From: Verrucomicrobiia bacterium
GTDB lineage: Bacteria; Verrucomicrobiota; Verrucomicrobiia; Palsa-1439
Direction: 5' to 3'
Assembly (NCBI GenBank): GCA_035541135.1
Contig: DATKNW010000043.1
Span: 17,755-81,754, forward strand
Length of the DNA: 64,000 nucleotides
The stretch's first letter is position 1; every line of letters begins with the position of its first letter. Of the stretch, positions 628 to 17,934 are shown one piece after another. The notes beneath the pieces are model-generated. The model saw only the letters and a program-made list of their open reading frames with translations, searched no databases and had not been told where the DNA came from. Position numbers and translations under genes: made by a program.

Positions 628-1047
628 TACTGAGTCCTCCTTGTTCGACTTTTTTGAGCTAAGGCAAGCAAATGCTGTGCCTTCAATGTGTAAAATGCAA
701 TATCAAAATTGAGAAAATCAGGGAACGGTGGCGCATTCGCGACCCGATAACCGCTAGAAAGCGTGATGATCGGCCTTCGCCGCCAAGCCAGTATAATACT
801 GGGCTGGGAGCAAGATCTCTCATGAGCCGTACGCCTACGAACCTGTTTGTGTTTGAGAATTGCATCAGCCTCACGTTTGTGGAGTTTCTGTGAAATTCGT
901 ATGATCTTGCCTCAACACTGCTGTTGATCTCTCGGTTCTCTCAGCCATCAACCGGTAACGGAAATGCGACCACGCATCCGAGACCGGCCACTCATCCACC
1001 ATCGGATCCGCGTGGCACGCCTGCACGCGGTTGGGAAGAAATCATAG

Positions 1048-1106: not shown

Positions 1107-1280
1107 TTACGGCAAGTTCTGATTCACGCTCGACAGCGTGTTATTGATGTGGGTGCCGAGACCCTTCAGCACCAACACGGCCACGACGGCGATCAACGCC
1201 AGAATCAACGCATATTCCACCAGGCTCTGCGCCTTGCGCGACTTCAGGCTCGCATACAGTTTTCGGAGAGTTTTCTTCAT
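1107..1280 (-). CDS. flp: Flp/Fap family type IVb prepilin.
   Basis: The product MKKTLRKLYASLKSRKAQSLVEYALILALIAVVAVLVLKG... contains the Flp motif (xxLVEYALIxALIAVV) and is 57 aa long. AAGGAGG lies 6 nt upstream of the ATG at 1280, so the upstream M codon at 1298 would include the RBS. The gene is in a tad-locus context with cpaB. Confidence 0.8.
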   Translation of the reverse strand: MKKTLRKLYASLKSRKAQSLVEYALILALIAVVAVLVLKGLGTHINNTLSSVNQNLP

Positions 1281-1353
1281 CACATTCACCTCCTTCATCT
1301 GGTTTCCTTCATATCTTCTGACCCGACGGACTTGTTTCGTGACGACTCAACCG

Positions 1354-1369
1354 AGCAGCATATGTGCCA
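1354..1369 (-). promoter_or_regulatory. Candidate sigma-54 (-24/-12) promoter for flp.
   Basis: The minus strand reads TGGCACatatgcTGCT. GG and GC are spaced exactly as in the consensus TGGCACG-N4-TTGCW, with one mismatch in the -12 box. It lies about 75 bp upstream of the flp ATG and is followed by an AT-rich stretch (1380-1450) that could hold an IHF or enhancer region. A sigma-54 EBP gene is present in the window. Confidence 0.4.
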
Positions 1370-1571: not shown

Positions 1572-3155
1572 TCAATGCAACTCGTACAGTGTCATTCCTG
1601 ACTCCACCACCAAGCTCGCCCCACGTACATCAAAGAAATGCCCAAAAATGTCCGGTGACAGGCCCGGCGGTACGGCTAGAAGCGCGTGTTGGCCATCGGC
1701 CGCTCCGAAATCGCTTTGGAAAGTTGTCTTCCAGTGATATCCGACCCAGGTCTTCCTCCCGAGATCATCCGCGGACGAAGCGTCCGAGAACAGAAGAACG
1801 TTCCGATACTCCGGCAAGTGGTATTCGAACTGGCGAAATCCCCAATAGAAGCTTTCGACGCCGTGACAGATGACGACGTTGGCGGGCGCCCATTTACGTC
1901 GAATCGCTTGGAAGCACGCAGATAGATCAGCGTCATGCCTCCGTATTTCCACGCCCGTCAGGGGCATACCCGCCAGCAGTCGCTCCGCCCAGACGGGCTG
2001 GAGGACAAATATGATCGAGTTGATCGCCACGACGAACCCAAGCACGCCGCAATGGGTCCAGCCTCGACGGACGCGGAGCAAACCCGACAGGCGGCCTGAG
2101 TGCCGAACGAGGCCGAGAGCGGCGAAGATGGCAACAGCCGGAAAGAAATTGAGCGCGTACCCGGGCATCGTCACATACATGAGCAGCCAGAACAACACCA
2201 TCGGGGCGATCCACAGCGCGAGCAGGTGGAACTGAAGTCTGTGCGCTCGACGAAGATGGTCCTTGGCCGTCGGCTTCTCGAAGACGCTCCACAGGATGAA
2301 CTCGATTACAAAAATGAGCGCCGCGGCCAACAGCCCCACCCAGGTGGCTGCGCTGAGATTGCCGATATTCGTCCAGAACGCTTTCAGCCCTCCTCCGCCC
2401 CAGACAGTTTGGTGGGCATCAAACTGGTTCTTGAGCCGAAGCAAGTGAATGTAGGAGGCGAAACCGCCCGCCGACCTCATGGTGGGTATGAACCAGAACA
2501 GTGAAAAACTAACTGTCAATGCAATCGCGCAGAGCAACTTCCACCCGCGCTGTTGCTCGGCCCGCCACAGGACATACAGACCCAACGGAATCAGGCAGGG
2601 TGCGGTTTGTTGGCGAACGCCCGCGACCGCCGCGAGCAGAGCGGCCAGCAGCACCGTTTGAAACCAGGTCACTCTTTGCCGGATGGCTCGCCAGCCGAGA
2701 AGCACGAAGCTTGTGACTAGGGCGCTGTCCACGATTGTTGTCAACGCGACTTCACTGTGGAACCAGCACAACGGGCTGGTGAGCAGAATCAGTCCGGTGG
2801 CCCATCCGCATTCGCGGCCAAACATCGAGGTCGCCAGCAGATAGCCCGCCGCCACCAACCACGCCCCCGCAATCACACTCAGCCAGACCAGCGCAGCGTG
2901 CGGTTCGCCAACCACGAGATTTACCAGGCGGCCCAGCACCACGTACAAATAGAAACCGGGAGGTTGCGGTTGGCCGTCGCGAAGATCGTACTCGCCAAGC
3001 GCCAGGGCAAACTGGGCGCTGTCCCAGTGGTAGGCGAGCTGACTGCGAAATGGGATTCGCACGGCAAGGGCGACCACGAGGACGAGCGCGACTGCCGCCC
3101 CGTCCCATCTTGTCCACCGGCCTACGTCCGTTTGATTCTCGTGACCGTCAATCAT
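1572..3155 (-). CDS. Polytopic membrane glycosyltransferase, GT-C fold (GT39/PMT_2 / ArnT-like), paralog A.
   Basis: About 527 aa, multi-TM N-terminal region, and a YHWDSAQF loop motif shared with the next gene. The start is chosen at the MIDGHENQ Met rather than at the upstream alternative start. Confidence 0.55.
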   Translation of the reverse strand: MIDGHENQTDVGRWTRWDGAAVALVLVVALAVRIPFRSQLAYHWDSAQFALALGEYDLRDGQPQPPGFYLYVVLGRLVNLVVGEPHAALVWLSVIAGAWLVAAGYLLATSMFGRECGWATGLILLTSPLCWFHSEVALTTIVDSALVTSFVLLGWRAIRQRVTWFQTVLLAALLAAVAGVRQQTAPCLIPLGLYVLWRAEQQRGWKLLCAIALTVSFSLFWFIPTMRSAGGFASYIHLLRLKNQFDAHQTVWGGGGLKAFWTNIGNLSAATWVGLLAAALIFVIEFILWSVFEKPTAKDHLRRAHRLQFHLLALWIAPMVLFWLLMYVTMPGYALNFFPAVAIFAALGLVRHSGRLSGLLRVRRGWTHCGVLGFVVAINSIIFVLQPVWAERLLAGMPLTGVEIRRHDADLSACFQAIRRKWAPANVVICHGVESFYWGFRQFEYHLPEYRNVLLFSDASSADDLGRKTWVGYHWKTTFQSDFGAADGQHALLAVPPGLSPDIFGHFFDVRGASLVVESGMTLYELH

Positions 3156-3237
3156 TGTTGCGCGACCTCGGCGGCCTTCGGTGGCATCTGAGTTTCTTCT
3201 CACGTGCCAGGCAATTCGCCGCGAATCTCGCCGCTCG

Positions 3238-4821
3238 TCACCCCGATGGTTTCATGTCCTGCGCTGGAAGAAGATACAGGTTTCCGGTTATGCGTGATAC
3301 CGCTCTCATGCTGGCGAGCGACAGGTATGGGGCGAAGATTTCGACGCTTTCGCCGGGCGGCACGAACAAGACCACGCCCGTTTTGTTCTGCAGATCGGGC
3401 TTGTCCACGAACCCAAGGCGGCCATCACGGACGCGCCAGATCGGTTTGCCCGGCGGATGCAGCGCGGTTGAATCCAGCACGAGTTGGTACTGCTCGTACT
3501 CCGGCAGGCAGACCTGGAAATGGCGCAAACCCCACAGGTAATATTCTTCGGAAAAACAGATCACCACGTCCTTTGGCGAAAATCTCTGCCGAACGTCCGC
3601 GACGATCCCGGACAACTGCGAGTCGTGCCGGGCAATCTCCGCCGAGGTTCGCGCCATGCCGAAGAAGACCCGGTCCCACAGCGCCGGCCAGGCCAGAAAT
3701 GAAATCACATTCACGGCGCCAATGGCCACGATCAGGAGCGAACGGTATCGGGCGTTCTTCAGAGTGGCAATCACGATTGCCGTCAGCAGAAACAACGCTG
3801 GCAGATAACCCAGCACGTAACCCGGTTGTTTCGTAAACCCAATCACGGTCCCGAAGATCACCATGGGCACAACCCATGCCGCCAGCACCGCCAGCGCGAG
3901 GGCGTGTTGACTGTTCCACAGTCGCTTCTGTTCGGTCGTCATTCGCGCCGCGCGGTACAGAAGCGCCGCGATCCATATCACCGCGGCCAGCATCAGACCG
4001 TTCAGGCAATAACCCGTGGTGTTCGCCACATTCTGCAGGAGCGCATCCCAGCCGCCACCCCAGAGAGTCGAGGAGGCGTTGACGAACGCGTGGCGCCGCA
4101 CGATCGTGAGATAGGCTCCCCACCCGCCCGAGACCCGCAGCATCGGCACGAACCACGCCAGTCCCAACCCAACGGCTGTAACGGCGGCCACCGCCAGCTT
4201 GGCGAGTCGTGCCCGTTGGAACTGCCAGAACGCGAACGCGACCAGCGGCACGAGCTCCGGCACGCTCTGCTGTCGAACGCCCCCCAGCAGCGCCAACAAC
4301 GCCCCGATTGCCACGGCGTCCCACCACGTGCCCCCGCGTTGCACGGCCAGCCACAATTCGAGCACGATGGCACAGACAAGGAAACTGTCTACGACGTACG
4401 TCAGGGCCACGCAACTGTGAAACCACACTTGCGGACTCGTCAACCCCATCACGGCAGCCGCCGCGCCCGCTCGGCGACCTGCCATCACGGTTCCCAGCAG
4501 ATAGAGCACCGCGGATAGTGCGCTGCCGAATACGATGCTGATCCACACCAGGCTGGCGTGCGGGTCGCCAATCCAGTTGTTCACGAGTCGCCCCAACAGG
4601 ACATAGAGGAAATAGCCCGGCGCGTGCGGCTGACTCAGACGAATATCAAATTGACGGATCGCCAGGACGAACTGCGCGCTGTCCCAGTGATACACGAGCC
4701 GGCTGCGGAACGGGACGCGCATCGCCACCGCCACAACAAACAACAGGAAGGCAACGACTCCGTCCCGCATCTGGAGTTGCTGGCCGGCACCGCGACCGCC
4801 GGCCTCAACGTGAGCGCTCAC
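3238..4821 (-). CDS. Polytopic membrane glycosyltransferase, GT-C fold (GT39/PMT_2-like), paralog B.
   Basis: Clear paralog of 1572..3155: RVPFRSRLVYHWDSAQF aligns with RIPFRSQLAYHWDSAQF. The GTG start at 4821 overlaps the upstream gene's stop (GTGA), which suggests translational coupling. Confidence 0.55.
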   Translation of the reverse strand: MSAHVEAGGRGAGQQLQMRDGVVAFLLFVVAVAMRVPFRSRLVYHWDSAQFVLAIRQFDIRLSQPHAPGYFLYVLLGRLVNNWIGDPHASLVWISIVFGSALSAVLYLLGTVMAGRRAGAAAAVMGLTSPQVWFHSCVALTYVVDSFLVCAIVLELWLAVQRGGTWWDAVAIGALLALLGGVRQQSVPELVPLVAFAFWQFQRARLAKLAVAAVTAVGLGLAWFVPMLRVSGGWGAYLTIVRRHAFVNASSTLWGGGWDALLQNVANTTGYCLNGLMLAAVIWIAALLYRAARMTTEQKRLWNSQHALALAVLAAWVVPMVIFGTVIGFTKQPGYVLGYLPALFLLTAIVIATLKNARYRSLLIVAIGAVNVISFLAWPALWDRVFFGMARTSAEIARHDSQLSGIVADVRQRFSPKDVVICFSEEYYLWGLRHFQVCLPEYEQYQLVLDSTALHPPGKPIWRVRDGRLGFVDKPDLQNKTGVVLFVPPGESVEIFAPYLSLASMRAVSRITGNLYLLPAQDMKPSG

Positions 4822-6332
4822 AATCCCTCCTTCGGCCGATACACGTAGTAGAAGTCATCGGATTTGCTGAACGGTTCGGGCACCACGTACCGAGCATCCA
4901 GGTGGTATCGCTTGCGCATCGGGATCAGCCACCGCGGCGGGAACGCCCACACGGGCCGGCGAGAATCGTCGAGAGGAGTCTTGGATATGATGGCAGCGAG
5001 CTCGCCCTGTTCGATTCTGCGCAACAAGTCCGTATCGTCGAATCTGCCAATGCGTTGCATGTGGGCGAACAAACTCGTGTCGATCATGTACGGTGTCCGG
5101 CCGGATCGCACGGCCAGGTACGGCTCCTCGGAGAGCACCGGTCCATCAAGCTTGCCGACGTATGTTGCCAGTTCCTTCCAGGACGTATTGTCACGCGACG
5201 ACAGGAGAATTCGCCAGCCTTGCTCGAATGAAAGCGCGACCGAGAGCCCCAGTGCCGTTGCGAGCCACCAGATATGCGCCCGCCGCACAACGTCGTTCGG
5301 TGAATACGCCAACAGGTCGTCCGTCAACACTCCGGCGAGGACGCACCCGGCGGCAAATGGCTCCAGATAATGGTTGGTCCACGTGCCGTAGATTCGCGAG
5401 CGCGCGAACGCCAGCCCGAGGCTGACAACAAAGTATCGCTTCCAAAGCCCGACACCGGGGAATCGGGCCGGGGCCGCACAAGCGATCGTCGCCCCGAAGA
5501 ACACGACGGCTCCCATCGTCAACGCGGTCAGCAACAACGACCATGTCCACCACCACGACGGGGCTTCCGCCAGACTGTAAAACACATTCAACGCAAACCG
5601 GCCGTTCGTCGCGTGCTGCGCTGCGATCGCCACCGCTGCCAGCACCGCGCCCCACGTCGTTGCCGCGGCGATGGCCCGCCCGAGGCGTCTCCGGAGGATT
5701 TCTTCGAGCGAAATCACGACCAACGGGGCGAAGACGGTGTGTTTGTACATCGTCCCCACGATCAGTAGCGCGACAGACCCTGCGAGATGGATCGGCGCCC
5801 GACCGCGCTGATACACCCACAATGCCGCCAGCGAGAAGAATAATGCCGCGGCATCCGGCCGAAACGAGTTCGCCCATTCCTGTCCCAACTCGCTGGCCCC
5901 CCACAGCAACGTGGCCAGCAGCGCCGCCCGTCGGGAACAACCCACCTGTCGCGCCAACAGGAATATTGCAACGCCGATTCCAACCCAAAACGGGTAGACG
6001 CTCCATCGTGCCGCCACAATCATTTCCAGCCAGGTTCGGGCCGGTCGGGCCACCCAGGCTGATGACCAGTAAAACAACGGCATGTAGGCGGTGATCGCGT
6101 AGGGTGGCCGCGTGTAGTCCAGATAGAGCGGCCCGCCGTTGTGCAGGCGACTCACGGCAAACAGAGATTCGCTCTCGGTCGGGGAATTCTCCCCGTCAAA
6201 CCCGATTCGTCCGATCAGCAGCCCTTGCCGCAGCGCGGTCAACACGACCAACACGGCCAGAAGAATCCCGATCCACTTCCGTATGCCGGCTGCCGAAAGC
6301 GTTCCGCGCGCGCGTTCCACGGACTGCCGCAT
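4818..6332 (-). CDS. Polytopic membrane protein, putative GT-C glycosyltransferase of unassigned family.
   Basis: 504-aa ORF with more than 10 predicted TM segments and uniform codon usage. It is the second gene of a four-gene minus-strand membrane-protein operon. Confidence 0.45.
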   Translation of the reverse strand: MRQSVERARGTLSAAGIRKWIGILLAVLVVLTALRQGLLIGRIGFDGENSPTESESLFAVSRLHNGGPLYLDYTRPPYAITAYMPLFYWSSAWVARPARTWLEMIVAARWSVYPFWVGIGVAIFLLARQVGCSRRAALLATLLWGASELGQEWANSFRPDAAALFFSLAALWVYQRGRAPIHLAGSVALLIVGTMYKHTVFAPLVVISLEEILRRRLGRAIAAATTWGAVLAAVAIAAQHATNGRFALNVFYSLAEAPSWWWTWSLLLTALTMGAVVFFGATIACAAPARFPGVGLWKRYFVVSLGLAFARSRIYGTWTNHYLEPFAAGCVLAGVLTDDLLAYSPNDVVRRAHIWWLATALGLSVALSFEQGWRILLSSRDNTSWKELATYVGKLDGPVLSEEPYLAVRSGRTPYMIDTSLFAHMQRIGRFDDTDLLRRIEQGELAAIISKTPLDDSRRPVWAFPPRWLIPMRKRYHLDARYVVPEPFSKSDDFYYVYRPKEGL

Positions 6333-6365
6333 AACACAGCCGCCGCATCAAATGCGACACCAGAA

Positions 6366-7598
6366 TTACGGGTTCCGCTCGCGGACGAGGAAGAAGCAGA
6401 ATCCGATCAGCCCGTAGAGGGGCAGGTAATTCAGCAGGATCATCAGAAGGGGAGATCCGCCCCAGAACGATTTGTCCCATGGACCTTCAGAATTCGTCGC
6501 GATGAGGAGCGCGGAGAATACGAGCAGGCGCCGCCAGGAAGACGATGCCGCGAGCCGGGCCGCGGCCAGTCCAACCGGGAAGATCAACTGGACGAAGTAG
6601 TACGCGCACCCGTAGACCGTGAGGGTCGCCGCGCACAAGAGGGAAAACTGCAGGTCTTCATCGCCGTCCGTTGTAACGCAAAACAAATACGCCGCCGCGA
6701 CCGCCGCCAACCCGATGCTGCTGCCGGTCATCCACAATCCCCGGCCCGGCTCAACCGACGCGGTTCCACTGCGCAACGCCTGCGCCAAATTGATGACGAA
6801 CGACGACAGGGTGAAGTTGAACGTGTGGCCGACCGCCCACCAGCGGATGATGGGAGGAGCGACCTCGTAGAAGTCGGCCCACAGGCCGGGCCCGGTCACG
6901 AGCACGATCGCGCCGGCGCCCAACGCCAGCGCGGCGGCGGTGCGCAGACGTTTCCACATCGGGCGTTTGCTGCGCCAAATGAACCACGGCAAGAACGCCA
7001 GCGGATACATCTTCACCAGTCCCGCCAAGAGCACGAGCCAGCAGGCCCGGTCTTCCTTGCCGGCCTTGTGCCAAGCATACGCCGCCAGCAACGCCGCCGT
7101 CAGCGTCAGGTTCTCGGGGGAAAACGCAAAGTGCCACAACACGGGCGACGAGGACACGAACCCGGCGCAGAGGAACCACCAACCTCGTTCGCTGAGCTGG
7201 CCCTTCAGCAGATGCCTTGTCAGCCACAGGACCGCCACGAGGCTGACGGCTTCGATGGCCACCCGCAGCCAGAAGGCCGGTCGCTGCGCCAGCATGGCCA
7301 TCGGCACCCACAACCACAGCGATACCGGCGTGCTCGTCGCCACCTCCGGGCGCAGAAACACGGGCTTCTCTGTTCCCGCCGTCGCGGGAGTTCGGTAGGG
7401 ATTCTGGCCTTCCCACAGCAGCCGGCTCGTAATGTAGTAATGATCGAAGTCCGGCGCGAACGCGCGCGACGGCAACATCTCGACGATCCAGACGACGTGG
7501 ATCAACGCGATCACCGCCGCGCCCACAGCCAGCACGGGAGCCAGCACGGGACTGCGCCACATTCGATCCGGTCCGATCATTCTTCGCGGCCCATGCAA
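6366..7598 (-). CDS. GT87/DUF2029-like membrane mannosyltransferase-type protein.
   Basis: About 410 aa, multi-TM, with a KMYPLAFLPWF motif characteristic of the DUF2029/GT87 family (PimE-like polyprenol-phosphate-mannose dependent transferases). It is the first gene of the minus-strand operon. Confidence 0.55.
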   Translation of the reverse strand: MHGPRRMIGPDRMWRSPVLAPVLAVGAAVIALIHVVWIVEMLPSRAFAPDFDHYYITSRLLWEGQNPYRTPATAGTEKPVFLRPEVATSTPVSLWLWVPMAMLAQRPAFWLRVAIEAVSLVAVLWLTRHLLKGQLSERGWWFLCAGFVSSSPVLWHFAFSPENLTLTAALLAAYAWHKAGKEDRACWLVLLAGLVKMYPLAFLPWFIWRSKRPMWKRLRTAAALALGAGAIVLVTGPGLWADFYEVAPPIIRWWAVGHTFNFTLSSFVINLAQALRSGTASVEPGRGLWMTGSSIGLAAVAAAYLFCVTTDGDEDLQFSLLCAATLTVYGCAYYFVQLIFPVGLAAARLAASSSWRRLLVFSALLIATNSEGPWDKSFWGGSPLLMILLNYLPLYGLIGFCFFLVRERNP

Positions 7599-7982
7599 AA
7601 TCTAATAACAGGGCACCCGGACAACTCCAAGCGGAAATCTCCCGGACCTCCGGGCCGGCCCCATCGAAGTGCGAGACCGGGGCGCCCACCGCTCCCCCCT
7701 GCCGTCCCCACCGGCCCCCGCGCTGGCGTCCCTGCTCCGACAGGAGTCGCGAGTCCCTCTCGGACTTGCGGTCGTTTGCCCCGTCGTCCCATCAACCATC
7801 CGCCATCGACCATCTCCAGCCCGTCCCCTCATTCCTCTTGCCCATCCCGCCACCGCGACGCATTCCCTCCGGTGTAGCAACGTCTCTGCGAGACGTTCAG
7901 CTTTCCGCCTTTGTCCCACTCGTGCTTTCCTGTGTGCACTTCGGCGTTGAACATTCGGTCACGGCTCCGTAATCTGCCGCTG

Positions 7983-9533
7983 ATGGCGGCAAACGGAAAC
8001 GGTCCCGACTCACAGCCGCGCGTGCAGACGGACTCCGACGCGGAATCCTCCGGCGGCATCCTGCCGTGGGTGATGCCGACGTTGACGCAATGGCTCTGGC
8101 TGGTGATCCTGCTGATTCTGCTGGCCAATCCCTGGCGCACCATGATGGCCGCGAGCGACGGCGACACCTGCATGCACTGGCGCGTCGGCGAATACATGCT
8201 CGAAACCGGCCGCCTGATCCGTGCCGACGTGTTTTCCCACACCCGCTACGGCGCCCCGATCATCTCCAAGGAGTGGCTGTCGGAAATCATCTTTGCCCTG
8301 GCGGGCCGCGTGTGGGGATTGTACGGCCTGTGCGTCGTGACCGCGCTGTTGATCGCCACGACGTTCGCCCTGCTGCATCGCCAACTGGTGCGCGAGAGCG
8401 GGAACCACGCCGTCGCGATCTTTGTGGCGTTCCTCGCTGCGTGGGCGGCCTGTGCGCACTGGATGGCGCGTCCGCATGCGTTCAGTTTCCTCCTGGCGGT
8501 GTTGTGGGTCGACGCCCTGCGTCGCTTCGAGCGCGGCGAATCGGCCCGGCGCCTGCTCGTCACGCTCGGCGCGTTGACGCTGCTGTGGGTCAACCTGCAC
8601 GGCGGCTACCTGGCCGGGTTCATCACGCTGGGGATTTACTGGATGGGCGCGCTGATCGAGCTGCCGCTGGCCCGCGCCGACCAGAACCGATCCAGCGCCG
8701 TCCGCCGCAAGCTGGCGGTGCTGACCGGCGCGATCGCATTGTGCGGTGTCGTCTCGCTGCTGAACCCGAGCGGGTATCAGCTCCACCTTCACAACCTTCA
8801 TTTTCTCCGTTCCTCGTACCTGACCAACTGGCTGGCGGAATACGCCTCGTCCGATTTTCATGCGTTTGACTCGCACGGATTTCTTGCCTGGCTGGCGTTG
8901 ACGTTTTTGACGCTGGCCCTGGCGCGGCCACGGCTGTCGCCGGCGTCAGCATTGCTGCTGATCGTGTGGACGTATTTTGGACTGTACGCCGTGCGGAACA
9001 TTCCGCTGACGGTTGTCTTCGTGGCGCCGATCCTGGCGACAGCACTGGCCGATGCCGCGCCGGCGTGGGCGCGACGATTGTCCGACCGCATGCGTGAGAC
9101 CGATGAAATGTCGCGGGCCTGGCCACTGGTGGGCGCCGTGGCCATCGTCGCCGTCGTGGCATTCCCCCGGCCGACCGAGATGCCGGCGAAGAAATGGCCC
9201 GTCGACGCCGTTGCCTACATCCACCAGCATCCCGATCGGTTCACGGGGAATATGTTCAACAACTACGTGTGGGGCGGCTACCTGCTCTACGCCCTGCCCG
9301 AGCACCGCGTGTTCGTGGATGGCCGCACCGATTTCTACGGCGAATCCCTGATCCGCCAGTACGACGACACGTCGCTCCTGCACACGAACTGGCAGCAACC
9401 CCTCGCGCAGTACCACGTGGATTGGACGCTCATGCCCGTCGATCACCCCTTGAATCTCGCCCTCGCCTTGCTCCCGGGCTGGCATTGCGTCTATTCCAAT
9501 GAGGTGGCCGCCGTGTTTTGCCGACGACCGTGA
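7983..9533 (+). CDS. Tandem paralog 1 of an unclassified ~520-aa polytopic membrane protein family with GT-C-like architecture.
   Basis: Architecture is about 11 TM segments followed by a ~120-aa C-terminal soluble domain. The first loop carries SDGDTCMHW...FSHT...EWLSE, conserved in all five copies. The start is ambiguous between 7911, 7983 and 8073; 7983 matches the N-terminal length of the other paralogs. Confidence 0.6.
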   Translation: MAANGNGPDSQPRVQTDSDAESSGGILPWVMPTLTQWLWLVILLILLANPWRTMMAASDGDTCMHWRVGEYMLETGRLIRADVFSHTRYGAPIISKEWLSEIIFALAGRVWGLYGLCVVTALLIATTFALLHRQLVRESGNHAVAIFVAFLAAWAACAHWMARPHAFSFLLAVLWVDALRRFERGESARRLLVTLGALTLLWVNLHGGYLAGFITLGIYWMGALIELPLARADQNRSSAVRRKLAVLTGAIALCGVVSLLNPSGYQLHLHNLHFLRSSYLTNWLAEYASSDFHAFDSHGFLAWLALTFLTLALARPRLSPASALLLIVWTYFGLYAVRNIPLTVVFVAPILATALADAAPAWARRLSDRMRETDEMSRAWPLVGAVAIVAVVAFPRPTEMPAKKWPVDAVAYIHQHPDRFTGNMFNNYVWGGYLLYALPEHRVFVDGRTDFYGESLIRQYDDTSLLHTNWQQPLAQYHVDWTLMPVDHPLNLALALLPGWHCVYSNEVAAVFCRRP

Positions 9534-11077
9534 ATGCCGTTTCGCCCAACGCCGCCGCGCGGTCGACCAACTCTCCGCGCGCCCCGCTCCCTTCGCTCAG
9601 CGCCATGCTCTGGGTGATCCTGTTCCTCGGGCTGAGCTTCACCAGCGCCCGTGTCGTGATCGTCAGCGGCGACAGCGATCCGTCGCTGCATCGCCGGCTC
9701 GGCGAGTGGATGATCCAGCACCGGGCGATTGTCGGAGAGGACAACCTGCTTCACACATACCACGGCTCGGCTTCAACAATGGAATGGCTCAGCGAAGTCA
9801 TCATGGCCGCGCTTGGCAACTGGCTCGGCTGGAACGGTGTCGTGCTGCTGGCTGCGGCCCTCATCGCCACCTGTTTTTGGCTGCTGCACCGGCAACTGCT
9901 CGGCGAAGGCAGCGACCCGGTAACGGCGACCATTCTCGTGCTCGTGGCCATGCTCACCTGCTCGATGCACTGGCTGGCGCGACCGCTGTTGTTTACGCAC
10001 CTGATGACAGTCGTGTTCGCCTGGCAACTGCGCTGGTTTCAACGCGGCCGCGTCACGTCGCGACGGTTGTTCACGCTCCTTCCACCGTTGATGGCGCTGT
10101 GGGTGAATCTGCATGGCGGATTTCTCATGGGTCTGATCCTGATCGCCATGTACGCCGTCGGCGAAGTCGTTGATTCGTGGTCTCATCGCTCCTCGGTCGA
10201 ACGATTCAAACCGCTGGCCGCGCTGTTCGTGATCTGTTGCGCGGCGACCCTGGTCAACCCGGTCGGCTGGAGATTGCCGTGGGAGATTATGAGCTTTCTG
10301 AGGACCCCCGAACTGTCGACGCTGACCACGGAATTCCTGTCTCCGAATTTTCACACGGTGGGCATGCACGGCTTTCTGCTGCTCTTGTTGCTTCTGGCGG
10401 TCGGCTTGATTGTGATTCGCCCAAAAGCGACGGCGACCGACGTTGTCCTGATCGGCGGATGGGGTTATCTCGCGCTGCTCTCGGCACGAAATGTGCCCAT
10501 CTTCGCGCTCGTGGTGACACCGATACTCGGTCAGTGGTTTGCGGAATTCACGCGGGACGGTCAGGACCGTCTTTGGGTCCGCCGATACCGTGAATGGACG
10601 GAGAGAATGCCTGTCGCATCGCGGAGAATCGATGTCGCCATCATGCTCGCAACGATCATCGCCGCGCTGGCGGTCATGGCCAAGCCAGCGCTCGCCGGCG
10701 GCGCTCCGCTCATCGCCACCGATTATCCGTCCACCCGTTATCCCATGGCGGTCGTCGATTACCTTCGCGCGCACCCCGACGCGGTCCACGGTGAAATGTT
10801 CAACTACTTCCTCTGGGGCGGCTACATCGAATTCGCTCTTCCGTCGCGAAAACCGTTTATAGACAGCCGTCAGAATTGCTATGGCATCGATGTGTTCCAC
10901 GAATTTCGCACCGCCGACCAACCGAAGCCGGGATGGGAAGCCGTGTTCGCAAAGTATCATGTCGGCTGGACGATCCTGCCGGTGCAACATCCGCTCAATC
11001 GCATCCTGGAGCTCAGCCCCGGATGGACCCGCGTGTACTCGGACCGGCTAACGCTCGTATTCTCGCGTGTGTCATGA
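9518..11077 (+). CDS. Tandem paralog 2 of the same membrane protein family.
   Basis: The loop reads SGDSDPSLHRRLGEWM...EWLSE and the C-terminus reads ...SPGWTRVYSDRLTLVFSRVS. The probable TTG start at 9518 overlaps paralog 1 by 16 nt. Confidence 0.6.
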   Translation: MPTTVNAVSPNAAARSTNSPRAPLPSLSAMLWVILFLGLSFTSARVVIVSGDSDPSLHRRLGEWMIQHRAIVGEDNLLHTYHGSASTMEWLSEVIMAALGNWLGWNGVVLLAAALIATCFWLLHRQLLGEGSDPVTATILVLVAMLTCSMHWLARPLLFTHLMTVVFAWQLRWFQRGRVTSRRLFTLLPPLMALWVNLHGGFLMGLILIAMYAVGEVVDSWSHRSSVERFKPLAALFVICCAATLVNPVGWRLPWEIMSFLRTPELSTLTTEFLSPNFHTVGMHGFLLLLLLLAVGLIVIRPKATATDVVLIGGWGYLALLSARNVPIFALVVTPILGQWFAEFTRDGQDRLWVRRYREWTERMPVASRRIDVAIMLATIIAALAVMAKPALAGGAPLIATDYPSTRYPMAVVDYLRAHPDAVHGEMFNYFLWGGYIEFALPSRKPFIDSRQNCYGIDVFHEFRTADQPKPGWEAVFAKYHVGWTILPVQHPLNRILELSPGWTRVYSDRLTLVFSRVS

Positions 11078-12636
11078 TCGACGCCACCCGCCATGAGTTG
11101 CCCGCCGAGCCACATCGCTGGTGGCTGCCATCGCTGAGCCAGTTCATCTGGGTCGTACTGTTTCTCAGCATCATGCTGACGGACTGGCGACAGACGCTCA
11201 TCAACGCGGATGGCGACCCGTGCTGGCATTGGCGGCTCGGCCAGTGGATGATCGAGCATCGCGCCATTATTCGCAGCGATGTGTTCTCCCACACGCAGCC
11301 CGGCGCCCTGATCGTCACGAAGGAGTGGCTGAGCGAGGTGATCTTCGCCGCTGCGGGAAATGCTCTGGGCTGGAACGGCGTTGTGCTTGTCGCCGCCGTG
11401 TTGATTGCCACGACGCTGGCGCTCTTGCACCGCCAACTGGTGGCTGAGGGAAACGATATCGTCGCATCCACGTTCGCCGTCCTGCTGGCCGGCGTGGCCT
11501 GCATGGTTCACTGGCTGGCGCGACCGCATTTGTTCACGCTGCTGCTCGTGGTCATCTTCGCCTGGCAATTGCGATGGTACGACCGCGGTCGAATCAGCGC
11601 GCGCCAATTGTGGATCCGTCTCGTGCCGCTGACGGCGTTGTGGGCCAATCTTCACGGGGGTTTTCTCACGGCTTTTGTGCTGATTGACATTCACTTCGTC
11701 GGCAACTACCTGCGCATCAAAAACACCGACGCTCCGGCCCGAGCGGCGGTGCGCAACAAATTGATCGTGCTCGCCGCTCTTGCCGTCGCCTGCGCGCTGG
11801 CGACGCTGCTGAATCCAAACGGCTGGAAGCTGCACCGGTATCTCATCAGTTTTCTGTCGGTGGCGAACCGATCGCGTTTCACGAGCGAGTGGAGTTCCGC
11901 CAATTTCCACTTCAGCGGACTGCGCGGCTTTGAATGGCAACTGTTGCTTTTGGGATTTTTGCTGATCGTGGTGAGGCGGCCATGGGCGGCCACCGATCTT
12001 CTGCTTGTGGGGGTTTGGCTGTGGTCGGCACTGTACGCGATGCGCAACGTGCCCATCTTCGCGCTGATCGTGACGCCGGCTTTCGCCGAGCATTTGTCGG
12101 CGGCGTTTCGGGAAGCCCGCAACACGATGTGGGGGCGCCGGCTCTGGGAGCTTTCAGAGGACGTGAGCGCGGTGAACCGAGCCTCGGGCGGCGGCGGTCT
12201 GATTGCCGCGGTCATGATCGTGATGATTATCGTCGTGGCCAGGCCGGTGATTGCGAATGGCGCGCCGTTGCTCGAAACGCGGATTTCGTCGCGTCGATTC
12301 CCGTGCGAGAGCGTTGATTATCTGCGCGCGCACCCGCAGATCGTGCACGGCGGAATGTTCAACGAGGACGGCTGGGGCGGATACTTTCTGCTTTATTTGC
12401 CGGAACGGAAGGTCTTCATCGACGGACGCGACGATTTTTATCCCGAGGCATTCTTGCAGGAGTTTACGGAGGTCTCTCACCTGCGGCCCGCTTGGGAAAC
12501 CGTGCTGGCAAAGTATCGCGTCGGCTGGACGATCCTGCCGGCGCAGCATCCGCTCAATCGAATCATGGAACTCAGCCCCGGCTGGACCCGCGTGTACTCC
12601 GACCGGTTGACGCTTATATTCTCGCGCGTGTCATGA
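11074..12636 (+). CDS. Tandem paralog 3 of the same membrane protein family.
   Basis: The ATG at 11074 overlaps the stop of paralog 2 (ATGA). The N-terminus MIDATRHELPAEPHRWWLPSLSQ is nearly identical to the start of paralog 4. The loop reads NADGDPCWHW. Confidence 0.7.
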   Translation: MIDATRHELPAEPHRWWLPSLSQFIWVVLFLSIMLTDWRQTLINADGDPCWHWRLGQWMIEHRAIIRSDVFSHTQPGALIVTKEWLSEVIFAAAGNALGWNGVVLVAAVLIATTLALLHRQLVAEGNDIVASTFAVLLAGVACMVHWLARPHLFTLLLVVIFAWQLRWYDRGRISARQLWIRLVPLTALWANLHGGFLTAFVLIDIHFVGNYLRIKNTDAPARAAVRNKLIVLAALAVACALATLLNPNGWKLHRYLISFLSVANRSRFTSEWSSANFHFSGLRGFEWQLLLLGFLLIVVRRPWAATDLLLVGVWLWSALYAMRNVPIFALIVTPAFAEHLSAAFREARNTMWGRRLWELSEDVSAVNRASGGGGLIAAVMIVMIIVVARPVIANGAPLLETRISSRRFPCESVDYLRAHPQIVHGGMFNEDGWGGYFLLYLPERKVFIDGRDDFYPEAFLQEFTEVSHLRPAWETVLAKYRVGWTILPAQHPLNRIMELSPGWTRVYSDRLTLIFSRVS

Positions 12637-14195
12637 GCGACGCCATCCAGCACGAACCGTCCGCCGAACCGCGTCGATGGTGGCTGCCATCGGTCAGCAC
12701 GATGATCTGGTTGGTGTTCTTCCTCGCGATCATCTTCTCGCCGAACCGCGCGATGCTGGTGGCTTCCGATAGCGACCCGTGCTGGCACTGGCAACAGGGC
12801 AACTGGATGCTCGAGCACCACGCCGTGCTGCGGACCGAAATATTCTCCCACACGCGACCCGGCGCGCCGCTGGTGGATCTGTGGTGGCTGAGCGAGATCG
12901 TGACCGCCGTTGCCGGCAATCTGCTCGGGTGGAACGGCATTGTGCTCGTGACCGCGGCGCTATGCGCCACATCGGTGTGGCTGCTGCACCGGCAACTGCT
13001 AGCCGAGGAGAACGAAATCGTGTTGTCCACCGTGCTTACGCTTCTCGCCGCGAGCGCGTGCGCGATTCATTGGCTGGCCCGGCCGCACCTGGCCACGATC
13101 CTCCTCTTCATCGCGTTTGCCGGGCAATTGCGATGGTTCGCGCGGGGACGGACGACGGCGGGCAAATTGATGGTCTTGCTGCCTGTATTAACGGCGCTCT
13201 GGGCCAATTTGCATGGCGCGTTCGTGTTTGCGTTCGTGTTGATTGGCGTCTACTGGCTCGGCGCGGTTGTAAGTTGGATGATCGCGCCACAGGACCGACG
13301 GCCCGGATTCCGTCATCAAGTGGCTCTTCTAACCGGGCTGGGGTTGGCTTGCCTTCTGGCTTCGTTAGTCAGTCCGAACGGCTGGCGACTCCCTCTGCAG
13401 GTTTTTCATTATACGAGAAGCCCGTTGCTGATGGGTCTGGCCGTGGAATATCTCCCACCCAATTTTCATGATCCGGGAAATCTGCCGCTGCTTCTGATTT
13501 TCGCGTTGGTGCTCTCAGTGCTGGCGGTCGCGTGGCCGCGGCTGACCGCGACAGATGGTCTGTTGTTGGTTGTCTGGGCGGTGCTGGCGCTGCGGATGGC
13601 GCGGAACGGGCCGCTGTTTGCGCTCGCGGCCACGCCGATTCTTGCGGAGCATTGGAACGCGTATCTGCGCGCGGCCTCACCGTCTCGCGCGATGCAACGG
13701 TACCGGGCGCTGTCGGCGGGTCTGACGTCGGCCAATCGGATGGCGGGGGCTCGCGGACTGCCGGCGCTGGCGGTGCTGGCTATCGCGTTGGTCATGGCCA
13801 AGCCGCAACTTCTCGGCGGCCGGCCCCTGTTGGCCACCGAACTTCCTCCGCAACGGTTTCCCGTTGCCGCCGTCGAATTCCTCCACCGCTCGCCGGACGC
13901 GGTCCATGGCGAGATGTTCAACGAATACACGTGGGGCGGCTATCTCATCTGGGCGTTGCCGGAGCGGAAGGTGTTTATTCATCCCAACCTCGATGTTTAT
14001 GGAGAAGGGTTGGTGAGGGAGTTCGTCGAGGTGAACGAGGCGACAAATGATTGGGAAGGCATCCTGAAGAAATACAACGTCGGTTGGACGATCCTTCCGA
14101 CGGACCACCGCTTGAGTCGTCTTCTGGCGAAGCGCGCGGACTGGAAACTCGTGTACGCCGATTCCGTCGCGGCGATTTACGGGAGGACGCCATGA
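12633..14195 (+). CDS. Tandem paralog 4 of the same membrane protein family.
   Basis: The ATG at 12633 overlaps the stop of paralog 3 (ATGA). The N-terminus is MSDAIQHEPSAEPRRWWLPSVST and the loop reads SDSDPCWHW. Confidence 0.7.
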   Translation: MSDAIQHEPSAEPRRWWLPSVSTMIWLVFFLAIIFSPNRAMLVASDSDPCWHWQQGNWMLEHHAVLRTEIFSHTRPGAPLVDLWWLSEIVTAVAGNLLGWNGIVLVTAALCATSVWLLHRQLLAEENEIVLSTVLTLLAASACAIHWLARPHLATILLFIAFAGQLRWFARGRTTAGKLMVLLPVLTALWANLHGAFVFAFVLIGVYWLGAVVSWMIAPQDRRPGFRHQVALLTGLGLACLLASLVSPNGWRLPLQVFHYTRSPLLMGLAVEYLPPNFHDPGNLPLLLIFALVLSVLAVAWPRLTATDGLLLVVWAVLALRMARNGPLFALAATPILAEHWNAYLRAASPSRAMQRYRALSAGLTSANRMAGARGLPALAVLAIALVMAKPQLLGGRPLLATELPPQRFPVAAVEFLHRSPDAVHGEMFNEYTWGGYLIWALPERKVFIHPNLDVYGEGLVREFVEVNEATNDWEGILKKYNVGWTILPTDHRLSRLLAKRADWKLVYADSVAAIYGRTP

Positions 14196-15724
14196 ACCCG
14201 CGTTATCGCTGGCTGCCAACCATCGGACTGTCACTGTGGCTCGTCTTTGTCTTGGGCCTGACACTCTCGCCCTGGCGGTTGGTGATGATCAATGCCGATG
14301 GCGATACGTGCCTGCACCGGCAGATCGGCAACTGGATGATTCAGCATCGGGCGATTATGCGGGCGGACCCGTTTTCCCACACGCACGCCAGCGCACCGAT
14401 TGTGACGATGGAATGGCTGAGCGAATTGGCGTTCGCCATCGCGGGCAATGCACTCGGTTGGAACGGCGTTACGCTGCTGTCAGCGATGATGATCGCTGCG
14501 AGCCTGTGGATCCTGCAACGCCAGATGCTCTCCGAAGGATCAGATGTGATTGTGGCGACGGCACTGGCACTGTTGGCTGGCGACGCCTGCTCGATGCACT
14601 GGCTGGCGCGTCCACACGTGGTCTCATTCGTGTTCCTGGCCTGGTTCGGCTGGCAGTTGCATGCCTTCGAGCGTGGCGCGATCAGCCCGCGACAATTATT
14701 GGTGCGGCTGATTCCGCTGACGGTGTTGTGGGTCAACCTGCACGCCGGATTCCTCACCGGACTCATGCTGATCGGCGTCTGTTTTGCGGGGGCGGCGGTC
14801 GGGCTTTTCGTCGACGCTGACGAACACCGGGCCGCGGCTCGGCGCAACATGCAAACGCTGGCGCTGGCAGGGTTCGGTTGCTGCCTGGCCTCGCTGGCCA
14901 ACCCGAACGGCTGGGGATTGTACCGTTATCTGGGGAACTTTTTTCAACACTCCTCCCTCGTCGGCTTCATCAGCGAGTTTCGCTCACCGAGTTTTCATTC
15001 TCCGAGCACGAATGGATTTACGTTGCTGCTGGCCGCACTGGCTCTGACGCTCATCGTGGCGCGCCCCCGCCTCCGGCCCACGGAACTTCTGCTCATCGGC
15101 TGGAGCGGCTTTCTCGCCCTGCGCTGGGTCCGCAACATCCCGCTGTTTGCGATTGTGGTGACACCGATCATGGGCCGGCACCTGTCGGCGGCGTTACCAG
15201 AACTACGGGGTCGATGGGCCGAGCGCTATCGGAGAATCTGCGACGATCTTGGCCGGCTGAACCGGGCCGCCGATGGCCGCTGGCTGGCCGGCGTGGCGCT
15301 GGTTGCGCTCGTTGTCGCCTTCGCCAAACCGCATCTCGTCGGCGGGGCGCCCCTGGTCGAGACCGATCTGCTGACCAACCGGTTTCCCGTGGCGGCGGTG
15401 AATTTCGTTCGGCAGAATCCCGGCGCGGTGTCGCGGGAAATGTTCAACGATTACGGCTGGGGCGGCTACCTCGACCTCGCCCTGCCCGAGCACAAGGTCT
15501 TTGTGGACGGGCGTAACGATTTCTTCGGATTGGCCGTGATCCAGGACTTCGACGACGTCAACAAGGTGCGGCCCGACTGGGATGCTGTCTTGCGGAAGCA
15601 TCAGGTCGGCTGGACGATTCTGCCGCAGGCGCATCCGCTGAACGCGCTGCTGTCGCTGGAGACGAACTGGACCCTCGCCTATGCCGATGACGTGGCCGTC
15701 ATCTACACCCGCAAACTGGAGTGA
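14192..15724 (+). CDS. Tandem paralog 5 of the same membrane protein family.
   Basis: The ATG at 14192 overlaps the stop of paralog 4 (ATGA) and is preceded by GGGAGG. The loop reads NADGDTCLHR...MEWLSE. Confidence 0.7.
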   Translation: MNPRYRWLPTIGLSLWLVFVLGLTLSPWRLVMINADGDTCLHRQIGNWMIQHRAIMRADPFSHTHASAPIVTMEWLSELAFAIAGNALGWNGVTLLSAMMIAASLWILQRQMLSEGSDVIVATALALLAGDACSMHWLARPHVVSFVFLAWFGWQLHAFERGAISPRQLLVRLIPLTVLWVNLHAGFLTGLMLIGVCFAGAAVGLFVDADEHRAAARRNMQTLALAGFGCCLASLANPNGWGLYRYLGNFFQHSSLVGFISEFRSPSFHSPSTNGFTLLLAALALTLIVARPRLRPTELLLIGWSGFLALRWVRNIPLFAIVVTPIMGRHLSAALPELRGRWAERYRRICDDLGRLNRAADGRWLAGVALVALVVAFAKPHLVGGAPLVETDLLTNRFPVAAVNFVRQNPGAVSREMFNDYGWGGYLDLALPEHKVFVDGRNDFFGLAVIQDFDDVNKVRPDWDAVLRKHQVGWTILPQAHPLNALLSLETNWTLAYADDVAVIYTRKLE

Positions 15725-15731: not shown

Positions 15732-17129
15732 TCAGCGGACGAAATCGGGATCGATGTCGTACTTCTTGAGCTTGGCGTAGAGCGTGGTCCGGCTGATCTG
15801 GAGGATTTCCGCGGTGCGCTTGATGTTGCCACCGTATTGGCGAAGCGCGTTCACGAGGATTTGCTTTTCGGGTTCGCCCAGTTGATCCGACAATGCCGAC
15901 GAAGCGGTCGCGGCTGCGGGTTTGGCTTCCGTGATTCGTCGGGGTAGGTCGGGGCTGTCGATCAGCGATGACTTGGCCAGCACGACGGCCTGCAGGACGA
16001 CGTTTTCGAGCTCGCGGACATTGCCCGGCCAGTTGTATCCGCACAGGACGCTGATCGAATTGTCGCTGAACCCGTGCAGATCCTTGCCGTTCTGCCGCGC
16101 GAACCGCCGCAGAAACTCCATCGCGAGCAGCGGGACGTCCTCGGGGCGCTCTCGCAACGGCGGCAGGTCGATCTGCACCACGTTCAGACGGTGATACAAA
16201 TCGTCGCGGAACGATCCATCGGTGACCACGGCTTCCAAGGGCCGATTCGTCGCCGCAATGATGCGGACGTCGATCGAGATCGGTTTGGAACCACCCACCC
16301 GCTCGAACGTCCGCGTTTGCAAAACGCGCAGCAATTTCGCCTGGACATTGAGGTTGATGTTCGCAACCTCATCCAGGAAGAGCGTCCCGGTGTTGGCACG
16401 CTCGAACCGGCCGACATGCCGATCCACCGCGCCGGTAAATGCGCCACGCTCGTGCCCAAACAATTCGCTTTCCAAAAGTTCGCGGGCCAACGCGCTGCAA
16501 TCCAGGGTGACGAATGGTTTGCCGTGTCGACCGCTGGCCTCGTGTATGGCGCGGGCGACCAGTTCCTTGCCCGTGCCCGTCTCGCCGTGGATCAGCACAT
16601 TCGCGCTGCTATCGGCGATCGTTTGGATCAGCTCGAAAATCTCCCGCATCTGGCTGTTCTGGCTGATGATCCCGTAGAAGCCCTGCACCGATACCCCCAG
16701 CATTCCTCTTCCCCGGGCATCCGCCCCCGCTGTTCCCCTCACGAGCGTCCCCATCTCCATCACCGCCTGGCCCACCCGCTCCCGCAACCTCCCGAGCGCG
16801 GCCGCGTCCGTCCCCTTCTCCAAATAGTCATACACCCCCAACTTCGTTGCCCGCACCGCCTGCTCCACCGTCGCCCGCCCCGTGTGCACGATCAACGCCG
16901 CCTCGCCGTGTACCTGCCGCATCTGCTCCAACAACGCCACCCCATCCACCCCGGGCATATTATTGATATCCGCGATGACCACGTTCACATTCCGCGCGTC
17001 CAACAACAACATCGCGTCCTCCACCGTGTTCGCCGAAAACACTTCGAAATCATCCCGCATCAACAGCTCCGACAACCTCAGCGTCCACGGTACCTCGTGG
17101 TCAACCACCAGAATTTTCGCCCTTGCCAT
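15732..17129 (-). CDS. Sigma-54-dependent Fis-family response regulator (NtrC-type enhancer-binding protein).
   Basis: Three domains are recognisable. The N-terminus is a receiver domain (VVIADINNMPGVDG). The centre is an AAA+ sigma-54 activation domain containing GETGTGKE, the GAFTGA loop and the DVRIIAATN arginine-finger region. The C-terminus is a Fis-type HTH (RTAEILQISRTTLYAKLKKY). No adjacent histidine kinase was found. Confidence 0.9.
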   Translation of the reverse strand: MARAKILVVDHEVPWTLRLSELLMRDDFEVFSANTVEDAMLLLDARNVNVVIADINNMPGVDGVALLEQMRQVHGEAALIVHTGRATVEQAVRATKLGVYDYLEKGTDAAALGRLRERVGQAVMEMGTLVRGTAGADARGRGMLGVSVQGFYGIISQNSQMREIFELIQTIADSSANVLIHGETGTGKELVARAIHEASGRHGKPFVTLDCSALARELLESELFGHERGAFTGAVDRHVGRFERANTGTLFLDEVANINLNVQAKLLRVLQTRTFERVGGSKPISIDVRIIAATNRPLEAVVTDGSFRDDLYHRLNVVQIDLPPLRERPEDVPLLAMEFLRRFARQNGKDLHGFSDNSISVLCGYNWPGNVRELENVVLQAVVLAKSSLIDSPDLPRRITEAKPAAATASSALSDQLGEPEKQILVNALRQYGGNIKRTAEILQISRTTLYAKLKKYDIDPDFVR

Positions 17130-17713: not shown

Positions 17714-17934
17714 GTCGCCCTCCGCGTCAGTCTTCGATCACATCTCCCTCTTATACTGGTAATTACAGCGGCCAGTCAAACCCGCTGAATACCGACGGAG
17801 GTGCCAGCTACAACTGCCGCCCGCGCACCATCGCCTCTTCGCCGAGAACGACCTGCGCCGCGGAGCCGCAACGGAGCTGTTCCGTGGGCATTCTCGGTTG
17901 TTCGCCGAACAGCTTTGTGGTTGAATTTGATCAC

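Follow-up and report, generated by a model that had tools for sequence, protein, structure and literature searches.

We describe an island of nine genes in a 64,000-nucleotide (nt) stretch of DNA from a Verrucomicrobiia bacterium (assembly GCA_035541135.1, contig DATKNW010000043.1, positions 17,755 to 81,754 of the forward strand; the whole stretch is called the window below, and positions refer to it). The island (positions 1572-15724) lies beside a gene for a Flp pilin and encodes only membrane proteins of the GT-C type of glycosyltransferase. Five of these proteins, B1 to B5, belong to a very large family without annotation, genes of which recur at flp/tad pilus loci in other phyla. We propose, with a probability of about 35%, that B proteins are dedicated Flp/Tad-pilin glycosyltransferases (a "TfpW of Tad pili") in Acidobacteriota, Desulfobacterota, Verrucomicrobiota, Planctomycetota, and some Proteobacteria, and that the Verrucomicrobial arrays build a strain-variable multisugar glycan on the 40-residue pilin wholly in the periplasm, without an en bloc oligosaccharyltransferase. 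The enzymology would be familiar; new are the size of the unannotated GT-C family, its link to Flp and Tad, and a nine-gene, strain-variable array of GT-C genes only.

The island consists of nine long open reading frames (ORFs), four on the minus strand and five on the plus strand, with no other credible coding sequence. A first-pass annotation of this DNA had described 14 kb encoding nothing except GT-C-type membrane proteins, a description borne out for all nine genes by Pfam, family-level Pfam, or predicted fold. The minus-strand operon comprises A1 (1572-3203; 543 amino acids [aa]), a PMT_2/TMEM260-like GT-C candidate with a YHWDSAQF loop motif; A2 (3238-4821; 527 aa), a paralog of A1 with 37% identity; A3 (4818-6332; 504 aa), a protein of GT-C fold; and A4 (6366-7598; 410 aa), a glycosyltransferase of the GT87 family (PimE type). 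The spacings between these four genes are +34, -4, and +33 nt. A divergent spacer of 384 bp (7599-7982; given as about 380 bp before) separates A4 from the plus-strand array, which begins with the best-conserved orthogroup, B1 (7983-9533). There follow B2 (9530-11077), the member chosen for modeling; B3 (11074-12636) and B4 (12633-14195), the presence of which varies among relatives; and B5 (14192-15724), which represents the most divergent orthogroup. The five products share 34 to 51% identity and do form the paralogous array that had been suspected. Consecutive B genes overlap by 4 nt between stop and start codon (ATGA/GTGA), which suggests translational coupling, and the start codons given here are the likely ones. 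All nine island proteins are polytopic, with 5 to 8 strongly hydrophobic segments each. Long ORFs in other frames, such as 6141-7877 (plus strand) and 9773-10990 (minus strand), were rejected; their translations are of low complexity and rich in R, P, and Q, and they were considered GC artifacts (the region has a GC content of 62%).

The island is flanked on one side by the flp gene (1107-1298, minus strand; 63 aa; Pfam Flp_Fap with 34.5 bits against a cut-off of 32.2), for which the predicted mature pilin is QSLVEYALILALIAVVAVLVLKGLGTHINNTLSSVNQNLP, and by the 5' part of cpaB/rcpC (1-628, minus strand). The latter gene exceeds the left end of the window, and its product matched an RcpC-domain protein of the related locus L005 with 244 bits (phmmer). 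The remaining genes of this Tad/Flp locus are found downstream in the syntenic L005. On the other side lies the gene for an NtrC-type response regulator and sigma-54 activator (15732-17129, minus strand; Pfam Response_reg, Sigma54_activat, and HTH_8). The placement between flp/cpaB and an NtrC-type regulator had thus been recognized correctly in the first-pass annotation; its description of the island as convergent did not hold, as the A and B operons diverge and only B5 and the activator gene converge, with 7 bp between them. A 248-nt direct repeat of 81% identity spans the B2/B3 and B3/B4 junctions (10927-11174 and 12486-12733). It is better conserved than the gene bodies (60 to 76%), which suggests duplication of a unit across the junctions or gene conversion, and it produces spurious common "N-terminal extensions" in the raw B ORFs.

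No Pfam model matched B1 to B5 at an E value of ≤0.1, NCBIfam returned nothing above noise (15 bits, with the cut-off at 450), and a sequence profile of the paralogs found only chance kinase matches (E of about 1) among PDB sequences. The structure of B2 was modeled with AlphaFold2 (predicted local distance difference test [pLDDT] score, 88.5; predicted TM-score [pTM], 0.89). In a Foldseek search, all 11 matches with E values of <0.05 were GT-C enzymes (DPY19, STT3, AglB, AftD, ArnT, and Pmt; E values from 2.5e-7 to 6e-3). The modeled fold places B2, and with it B1 and B3 to B5 as paralogs, in the GT-C superfamily. A profile search that covered 1.84 billion cluster representatives retrieved 29,515 proteins at E ≤ 1e-3 and 5,642 at E ≤ 1e-30. 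Nine of 10 distant representatives were without a Pfam domain, and the tenth (P0241) was fused to C-terminal TPR repeats; members in cultured bacteria carry the RefSeq label "hypothetical protein."

An alignment of 117 full-length members from Verrucomicrobiota, Acidobacteriota, Chloroflexota, Desulfobacterota, Planctomycetota, and Melainabacteria revealed 12 residues that are present in all sequences (H54, G58, W86, R151, P152, W191, N193, H195, P244, R320, Y432, and W499), while D48 and E268 are kept in 116 sequences each and D50 is also conserved. The six proteobacterial members (about 25% identity) retain D48 and H54 in five cases each and the remaining polar residues in all six. The catalytic Asp/Glu of GT-C enzymes sits just after the first transmembrane helix. 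D48 of B2 (motif S-A-D-G-D-P) directly follows that helix, which spans residues 23 to 46 of the model, and the Arg, His, and Asn residues would be what a phosphate-binding donor site needs. By these residue patterns, the B family looks catalytic. The B proteins of the window have a periplasmic domain of about 110 residues and no TPR or other protein-recognition module. A periplasmic F-N-x-x-x-W-G-G-Y motif occupies residues 424 to 432 of B2 (window positions of about 10799-10825), some 35 residues past the last transmembrane helix; W429 is found in 112 and Y432 in 117 of the 117 sequences. In position and composition, it may bear a vague resemblance to the acceptor-binding WWDYG motif of STT3/PglB. 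B2 to B5 are as distant as B1 from acidobacterial and Geobacter B proteins (27 to 34% identity), and the array therefore arose by duplication within Verrucomicrobia. The notion of a phage-borne seroconversion cassette was tried and dropped, no B homolog having been found among 50,697 phage records.

The A-type proteins are GT-C enzymes by family or fold as well. The first-pass annotation had called A4 GT87-like, and A4 indeed matched Pfam GT87 (PF09594; E of 2.1e-17, 64.1 bits against a cut-off of 25) over positions 4 to 231 of the 237-position model. It had also listed A1 and A2 as GT39/PMT-like paralogs that share YHWDSAQF. The motif is present in both translations, and Y58 and D61 within it are invariant in a 14-member alignment; the family assignment required refinement. 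Taken singly, A1 matched PMT_2 (PF13231; E of 3.9e-4, 21.1 bits) and A2 matched TMEM260-like (PF11028; 18.1 bits) below the respective cut-offs of 26.1 and 24.2. Among the 14 members of the A1/A2 family, which come from five genome groups, 10 matched TMEM260-like and 9 matched PMT_2 at E ≤ 0.01 (best E values, 1.5e-10 and 1.3e-9), and the homolog from Geomobilimonas cleared both cut-offs. Neither the true PMT model (PF02366) nor MIR domains matched A1 or A2 in Pfam at E ≤ 0.1, and the A1/A2 family profile found nothing among PDB sequences, including no Pmt chain. From their sequences, A1 and A2 are thus probable members of a PMT_2/TMEM260-like family, and an assignment to true GT39 is not supported. 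A3 belongs to a small, lineage-restricted family (19 homologs, 18 of them without a Pfam domain), and its Pfam match to DUF2079 falls below the cut-off. For its AlphaFold2 model (pLDDT, 85.7), all 24 Foldseek matches at E ≤ 1e-3 were GT-C enzymes, with ALG12, ALG9, AglB, STT3, ArnT, AftA, PglB, Pmt4, and PimE at the top (E values from 1e-6 to 1e-3); as modeled, A3 has a GT-C fold. All nine island proteins are therefore of the GT-C type, by Pfam for A4, by predicted fold for A3 and the B family, and by family-level Pfam for A1 and A2.

The link of B to Tad pili was followed in a survey of one genome per GTDB species (phmmer/hmmsearch and a regular expression for pilins), which yielded 79 B loci. 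Of the 33 acidobacterial B loci, 24 had two or more kinds of tad gene within their 10-kb flank. In about 13 of the acidobacterial loci, B is followed immediately by one or two flp genes in the same orientation; the B stop codon lies 0 to 12 bp before flp where this was measured, and cpaB-cpaC-cpaE-cpaF follow. Four of five loci in Geobacter-type genomes were also tad-linked, and Geomobilimonas luticola (L019) carries B inside a tight operon of the order tadG-cpaE-cpaF-tadB-tadC-DUF192-[TMEM260/PMT_2 GT-C]-[PTPS_related membrane protein]-B-[methyltransferase dependent on S-adenosylmethionine (SAM)]-[673-aa protein]-[GT2]. Further arrangements are B-GT2-flp-flp-cpaB-secretin in a metagenome-assembled genome of Desulfobacterales, cpaE-cpaF followed at some distance by B-PMT-like in an anammox planctomycete, and flp-flp-GT2-methyltransferase-GtrA-B on a plasmid of Phyllobacterium zundukense, where the cassette starts 229 bp past the second gene annotated as "Flp family type IVb pilin." By a rough estimate for a genome of several Mb with one tad locus of about 10 kb, about 1% of random genes would have that locus within 10 kb. 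For Acidobacteriota and Desulfobacterota, the association of B with tad thus exceeds chance by far. A PMT_2/TMEM260-like partner often accompanies B at these flp/tad loci. Co-occurrence with the tad locus, which had been suggested as a check, was found to be stronger than expected, both in these counts and in the flp-island-activator synteny described below; homologous islands are not consistently located away from pilus genes, and the predicted folds are GT-C. In the L019 operon (6296-14287), genes for DUF192, PTPS_related (PF10131), and the Pfam-less 673-aa protein lie among and around the GT-C genes, and DUF192 homologs recur beside tad genes at several other loci.

Verrucomicrobial relatives retain the frame of the locus, with flp, A-type genes, the diverging B array, and the activator in this order, while the content of the island varies. 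Between 2 and 5 B genes, 0 and 3 GT87 genes, 1 and 2 PMT-like genes, and 0 and 1 A3 genes are present. An flp ortholog occupies the same position in L001, L004, L005, L008, L009, and L010, and the activator does so in L001, L004, L005, L008, L010, L013, and L015; in L009 it lies about 3 kb farther from the array. The smallest island (L005) holds one PMT-like gene, a 121-aa ORF, and two B genes, and a full tad operon lies beyond it, with genes for a secretin, cpaE, cpaF, and tadB after the RcpC gene. B1 is always the first B gene and shows 55 to 87% identity between genomes, compared to 51 to 56% for the B5 orthogroup. B2 to B5 constitute separate old orthogroups that are variably present: B3 is absent in L001 and L009, and B4 is absent in L007 and present in two copies in L015. 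GT87 and A3 vary likewise, and minimal loci consist of B1 and one undifferentiated copy. In L004, an inserted gene (6291-8429) lies where the two operons of the island diverge; its 712-aa product has a spermine/spermidine-synthase-like domain.

The region upstream of flp contains a sigma-54 -24/-12 element, TGGCACATATGCTGC (1355-1369, minus strand), which lies 71 nt upstream of the start codon and has one mismatch to the pattern TGGCAC-N5-TTGC. Five of six relatives (L001, L004, L005, L008, and L009) carry the same element, with 0 to 2 mismatches, at a distance of 72 to 96 nt upstream of flp; in 39 control regions, taken from upstream of B genes in other phyla, no sigma-54 site had one mismatch or fewer. 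The pattern is not enriched in the window (72 sites versus 79 expected), and therefore only the position and the conservation of the flp-proximal site carry weight. We conclude from these patterns that flp is probably transcribed from the predicted sigma-54 promoter through the adjacent NtrC-type activator. Since the element upstream of flp is conserved and the activator gene is retained beyond the far end of the island in these relatives, the activator is probably that of flp; the regulator had been classified correctly as NtrC type, and "orphan," as it was called, is imprecise. The divergent spacer (7599-7982) contains neither a sigma-70-like site nor a good sigma-54 site. Two other sigma-54-like sites with one mismatch each lie on the minus strand, one about 40 nt upstream of the cpaB start (668-682) and one about 90 nt upstream of the activator gene (17219-17233); the latter raises the possibility of autoregulation.

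Three-component periplasmic glycosylation relies on a synthase, a flippase, and a GT-C enzyme (PMC11127046), and by analogy B would be the GT-C component of such a scheme. A tblastn search of plasmid records recovered B homologs in five Proteobacteria, and in four of these (L086 [NZ_CP104971.1], L088, L089, and L091) B follows genes for a GT2, a class I SAM methyltransferase, and GtrA. The GT2 of P. zundukense (L086) matched the structure of the polyprenyl-phosphate glucosyltransferase GtrB (5EKP) over its full length with an E value of 2.4e-81; ArnC was also matched. The smaller GT2 of the Geobacter operon had ArnC, GtrB, and DPMS as its best matches, and a DPM1/ArnC-like GT2 gene abuts B at Geobacter-type, Desulfobacterales, Obscuribacterales, and other loci. 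The combination of a GtrB-like GT2 and GtrA is partly present in L019 and L040. A methyltransferase within a Gtr-like cassette, as in the Proteobacteria, is unusual for Gtr systems, and one also follows B in L019. The cassette on Sulfuricystis pSTJ1 contains two B copies and adjoins conjugative traG/traH/traF. At an Anaerolineae locus (UTCFX1; L054, 11239-15922), B is clustered with genes for PTPS_related, PMT_2, and a 462-aa UbiA-family prenyltransferase, and this cluster may be a donor pathway of the polyprenyl-phosphoribose type, as for arabinofuranose. The island of the window itself holds no gene for a flippase, polymerase, ligase, or nucleotide-sugar enzyme, in agreement with what had first been reported for it, and none for a GT2 or GtrA. 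An ORF of the epimerase/dehydratase family (60632-61636) was the sole gene of sugar-nucleotide type detected in the window.

The closest functional parallel is TfpW, a GT-C enzyme encoded beside pilA that glycosylates the Pseudomonas aeruginosa pilin from a lipid-linked donor (10.1101/2020.04.19.049825). Like the island proteins, this pilin arabinosyltransferase of group IV strains is polytopic and is encoded next to a pilin gene, and its loop 1 and a C-terminal domain are periplasmic. TfpW uses a polyprenyl-phosphate-linked monosaccharide provided by separate genes, requires a GtrA-like protein, and modifies the pilin before assembly (10.1101/2020.04.19.049825); B is likened to it by function and context only. 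However, TfpW acts on a type IVa pilin and not on a 40-residue Flp (type IVc), and it is a single multifunctional enzyme, compared to up to nine GT-Cs in an island. Gtr systems, which consist of the GtrA flippase, the GtrB synthase, and a serotype-specific GT-C, resemble the proteobacterial cassettes, in which B follows a GtrB homolog and GtrA. The cassettes differ by the additional SAM methyltransferase, and Gtr systems have O-antigens and other polysaccharides as their known acceptors; the island of the window, in turn, lacks GtrA and GtrB and has the GT-C component nine times. Actinobacterial mannosylation (Pmt of GT39; PimE and other GT87 enzymes) offers the same mix of PMT-like GT-C and GT87 enzymes, which use polyprenyl-phosphate-mannose at the outer face of the membrane. 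It differs in that A1 and A2 miss PF02366 and have no detectable MIR domain, that the host is a diderm Verrucomicrobium, and that the island is linked to a pilus locus. STT3/AglB/PglB and DPY19 were the best structural matches of B2 (TM-score of 0.47 to 0.58, normalized to the query; E values from 2.5e-7 to 3.5e-5), and like B2 they combine a GT-C core with a periplasmic or lumenal domain at the C terminus. Yet the sequence identity amounts to only 10 to 13%, with no sequence-level match in the PDB, and the Flp tails are without a conserved N-X-S/T. Archaeal type IV pilins and archaellins are targets of N-glycosylation by AglB, and archaeal pili are the presumed origin of the Tad system. An open-access full-text literature search found neither a tad-linked GT-C enzyme nor a dedicated Flp glycosyltransferase.

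We suggest the following model for the island. The A and B proteins are very likely glycosyltransferases that depend on polyprenyl-phosphate sugars, the donor type that we infer, and together they would form a glycan-assembly line at the periplasmic face that consists of GT-C enzymes only. They would take single sugars from donors that are made and flipped by the products of genes elsewhere. For the acceptor, we infer the Flp or Tad pilus, at even odds. The likeliest acceptor would be the tail of the Flp pilin, or another Tad protein, before it leaves the inner membrane; as long as the prepilin resides there, its short C-terminal tail would be exposed to the periplasm. The first sugar would be added by a conserved enzyme, namely, B1 and/or the PMT_2/TMEM260-like A1/A2. 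The variable set (B2 to B5, GT87, and A3) would then extend or branch the glycan, an order of action proposed here, and gain and loss of accessory GT-C genes between genomes would diversify the pilus glycan. Flp1 of Aggregatibacter actinomycetemcomitans has been reported to be glycosylated, in a passage that names no enzyme (PMC6182317).

Several observations weigh against a pilus acceptor. The flp tails compared across loci showed no conserved sequon and no invariant Ser/Thr. N-glycosylation was rejected as a general feature: the Flp of the window has an NNT sequon, which L005, L008, and most other Flp tails lack. A cryo-electron microscopy map of the Caulobacter Tad pilus is without glycan density (PMC10710030), and Flp glycosylation is therefore not general. 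Within Verrucomicrobia alone, adjacency to flp could be inherited synteny. No gene for GtrB, GtrA, a UbiA-type donor synthase, or a flippase was found among the scanned ORFs of the 64-kb window, and the donors must therefore be supplied by other parts of the genome. In Chloroflexota, tad linkage is seen at only 2 of 27 B loci; the B genes of this phylum sit with genes for GT87, PMT_2, PTPS_related, and UbiA, a neighborhood that looks like envelope-glycan synthesis. Three of the four proteobacterial GT2-methyltransferase-GtrA-B cassettes have no flp neighbor. Because most Chloroflexota loci and these three cassettes lie away from pilus genes, the B family overall is not pilin specific, and the association with tad belongs to B subfamilies. 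GT87 enzymes, moreover, classically elongate lipoglycans, and the source genome is rich in GT-C genes, with eight more candidates (membrane proteins with TPR repeats) in 64 kb.

The Chloroflexota neighborhoods, the cassettes without flp, the lipoglycan mannosyltransferases of the GT87 family together with the PimE matches, and the abundance of further GT-C genes all favor an alternative that we consider rather unlikely, in which the island decorates or builds a nonprotein envelope glycoconjugate (a lipopolysaccharide/O-antigen-like polymer, a lipoglycan, or an exopolysaccharide) and its adjacency to flp reflects coregulated adhesion or inherited synteny. Canonical Gtr-type systems do modify polysaccharides (PMC11127046). 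However, a role unrelated to the pilus would hardly account for the acidobacterial B stop codon 0 to 12 bp before flp, for the embedding of B within the Geobacter tad operon, for B ahead of GT2 and flp in Desulfobacterales, or for the order flp-flp-GT2-methyltransferase-GtrA-B in Phyllobacterium; these are four different arrangements in four phyla. The same recurrence of flp linkage in several phyla would not be needed by a general periplasmic protein O-glycosylation system, comparable to actinobacterial Pmt and GT87 enzymes or eukaryotic PMT/TMTC, the targets of which would be numerous secreted or surface proteins, Flp being one of them at most. The PMT_2/TMEM260-like nature of A1 and A2, the protein-modifying GT-Cs (DPY19, STT3, and AglB) that are the best structural matches of B2, the fusion of P0241 to TPR repeats, and the eight other membrane proteins with TPR repeats in the window, five of them with a PMT_2 match, are consistent with such a system; the B proteins of the window, though, lack a TPR or other protein-recognition module and possess only the periplasmic domain of about 110 residues, and we regard this explanation as improbable. 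The tight placement of B at tad loci and the lack of a match to any curated enzyme family could also be understood if B were a noncatalytic accessory membrane component of the Tad machine that merely keeps a GT-C-like fold. This seems very improbable in view of three observations: the polar signature, which is preserved in about six phyla and has an Asp just past the first transmembrane helix, the canonical GT-C position; the recurrent pairing of B with a GtrB-like GT2 and GtrA; and the many B members far from any tad gene. Glycosylation of pilin or surface proteins, as the first-pass annotation had suggested, is thus partly supported, by the recurrent flp/tad linkage and not by the Chloroflexota and proteobacterial loci outside tad.

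The island is not the sole concentration of GT-C-type genes in the window. Eight membrane proteins with TPR repeats are encoded at 17884-20136 and 36831-52661, five of which have a PMT_2 match. The first of these genes, directly beyond the activator gene (17884-20136), encodes a 750-aa protein with about seven TPR repeats at the C terminus and a polytopic N-terminal half; this half has no Pfam match of its own and shows homology to the proteins of the second cluster. The second cluster (35816-52661) comprises seven TMTC-like membrane proteins with C-terminal TPR repeats (36831-38669, 38674-40299, and, on the minus strand, 40320-42341, 44797-46791, 46819-48900, 48897-50957, and 50973-52661), five with a PMT_2 match and three of these above the cut-off. 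Genes for Pel9A-like beta-helix proteins (35816-36772, 42378-43382, and 43427-44275) are interleaved with them. Genes for plant-polysaccharide degradation occupy 20380-31834 and 53055-56808 (a block of GH44, GH3, GH94, GH31, and GH95 as well as two alpha-L-arabinofuranosidases); such a block is ordinary for soil and peat Verrucomicrobia.

Tad/Flp pili are among the most widespread adhesion organelles, and the modification of their tiny pilins is largely uncharted. The B proteins represent a GT-C family of thousands of sequence clusters that has so far been invisible to annotation. With them, the vague question of whether Flp pili are glycosylated, and by what, becomes a specific one that can be addressed in cultured Geomobilimonas and Phyllobacterium. 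If our reading is true, the Verrucomicrobial arrays would be unusual in that a whole glycan pathway consists of periplasmic-face GT-C enzymes only. The presence/absence variation of the arrays resembles that of O-antigen seroconversion loci. Pilin glycosylation blocks pilus-specific phages in P. aeruginosa (10.1101/150227), and for diversification of the glycan on Tad pili, pressure from phages that target pili, or adhesion specificity, would be a plausible driver.

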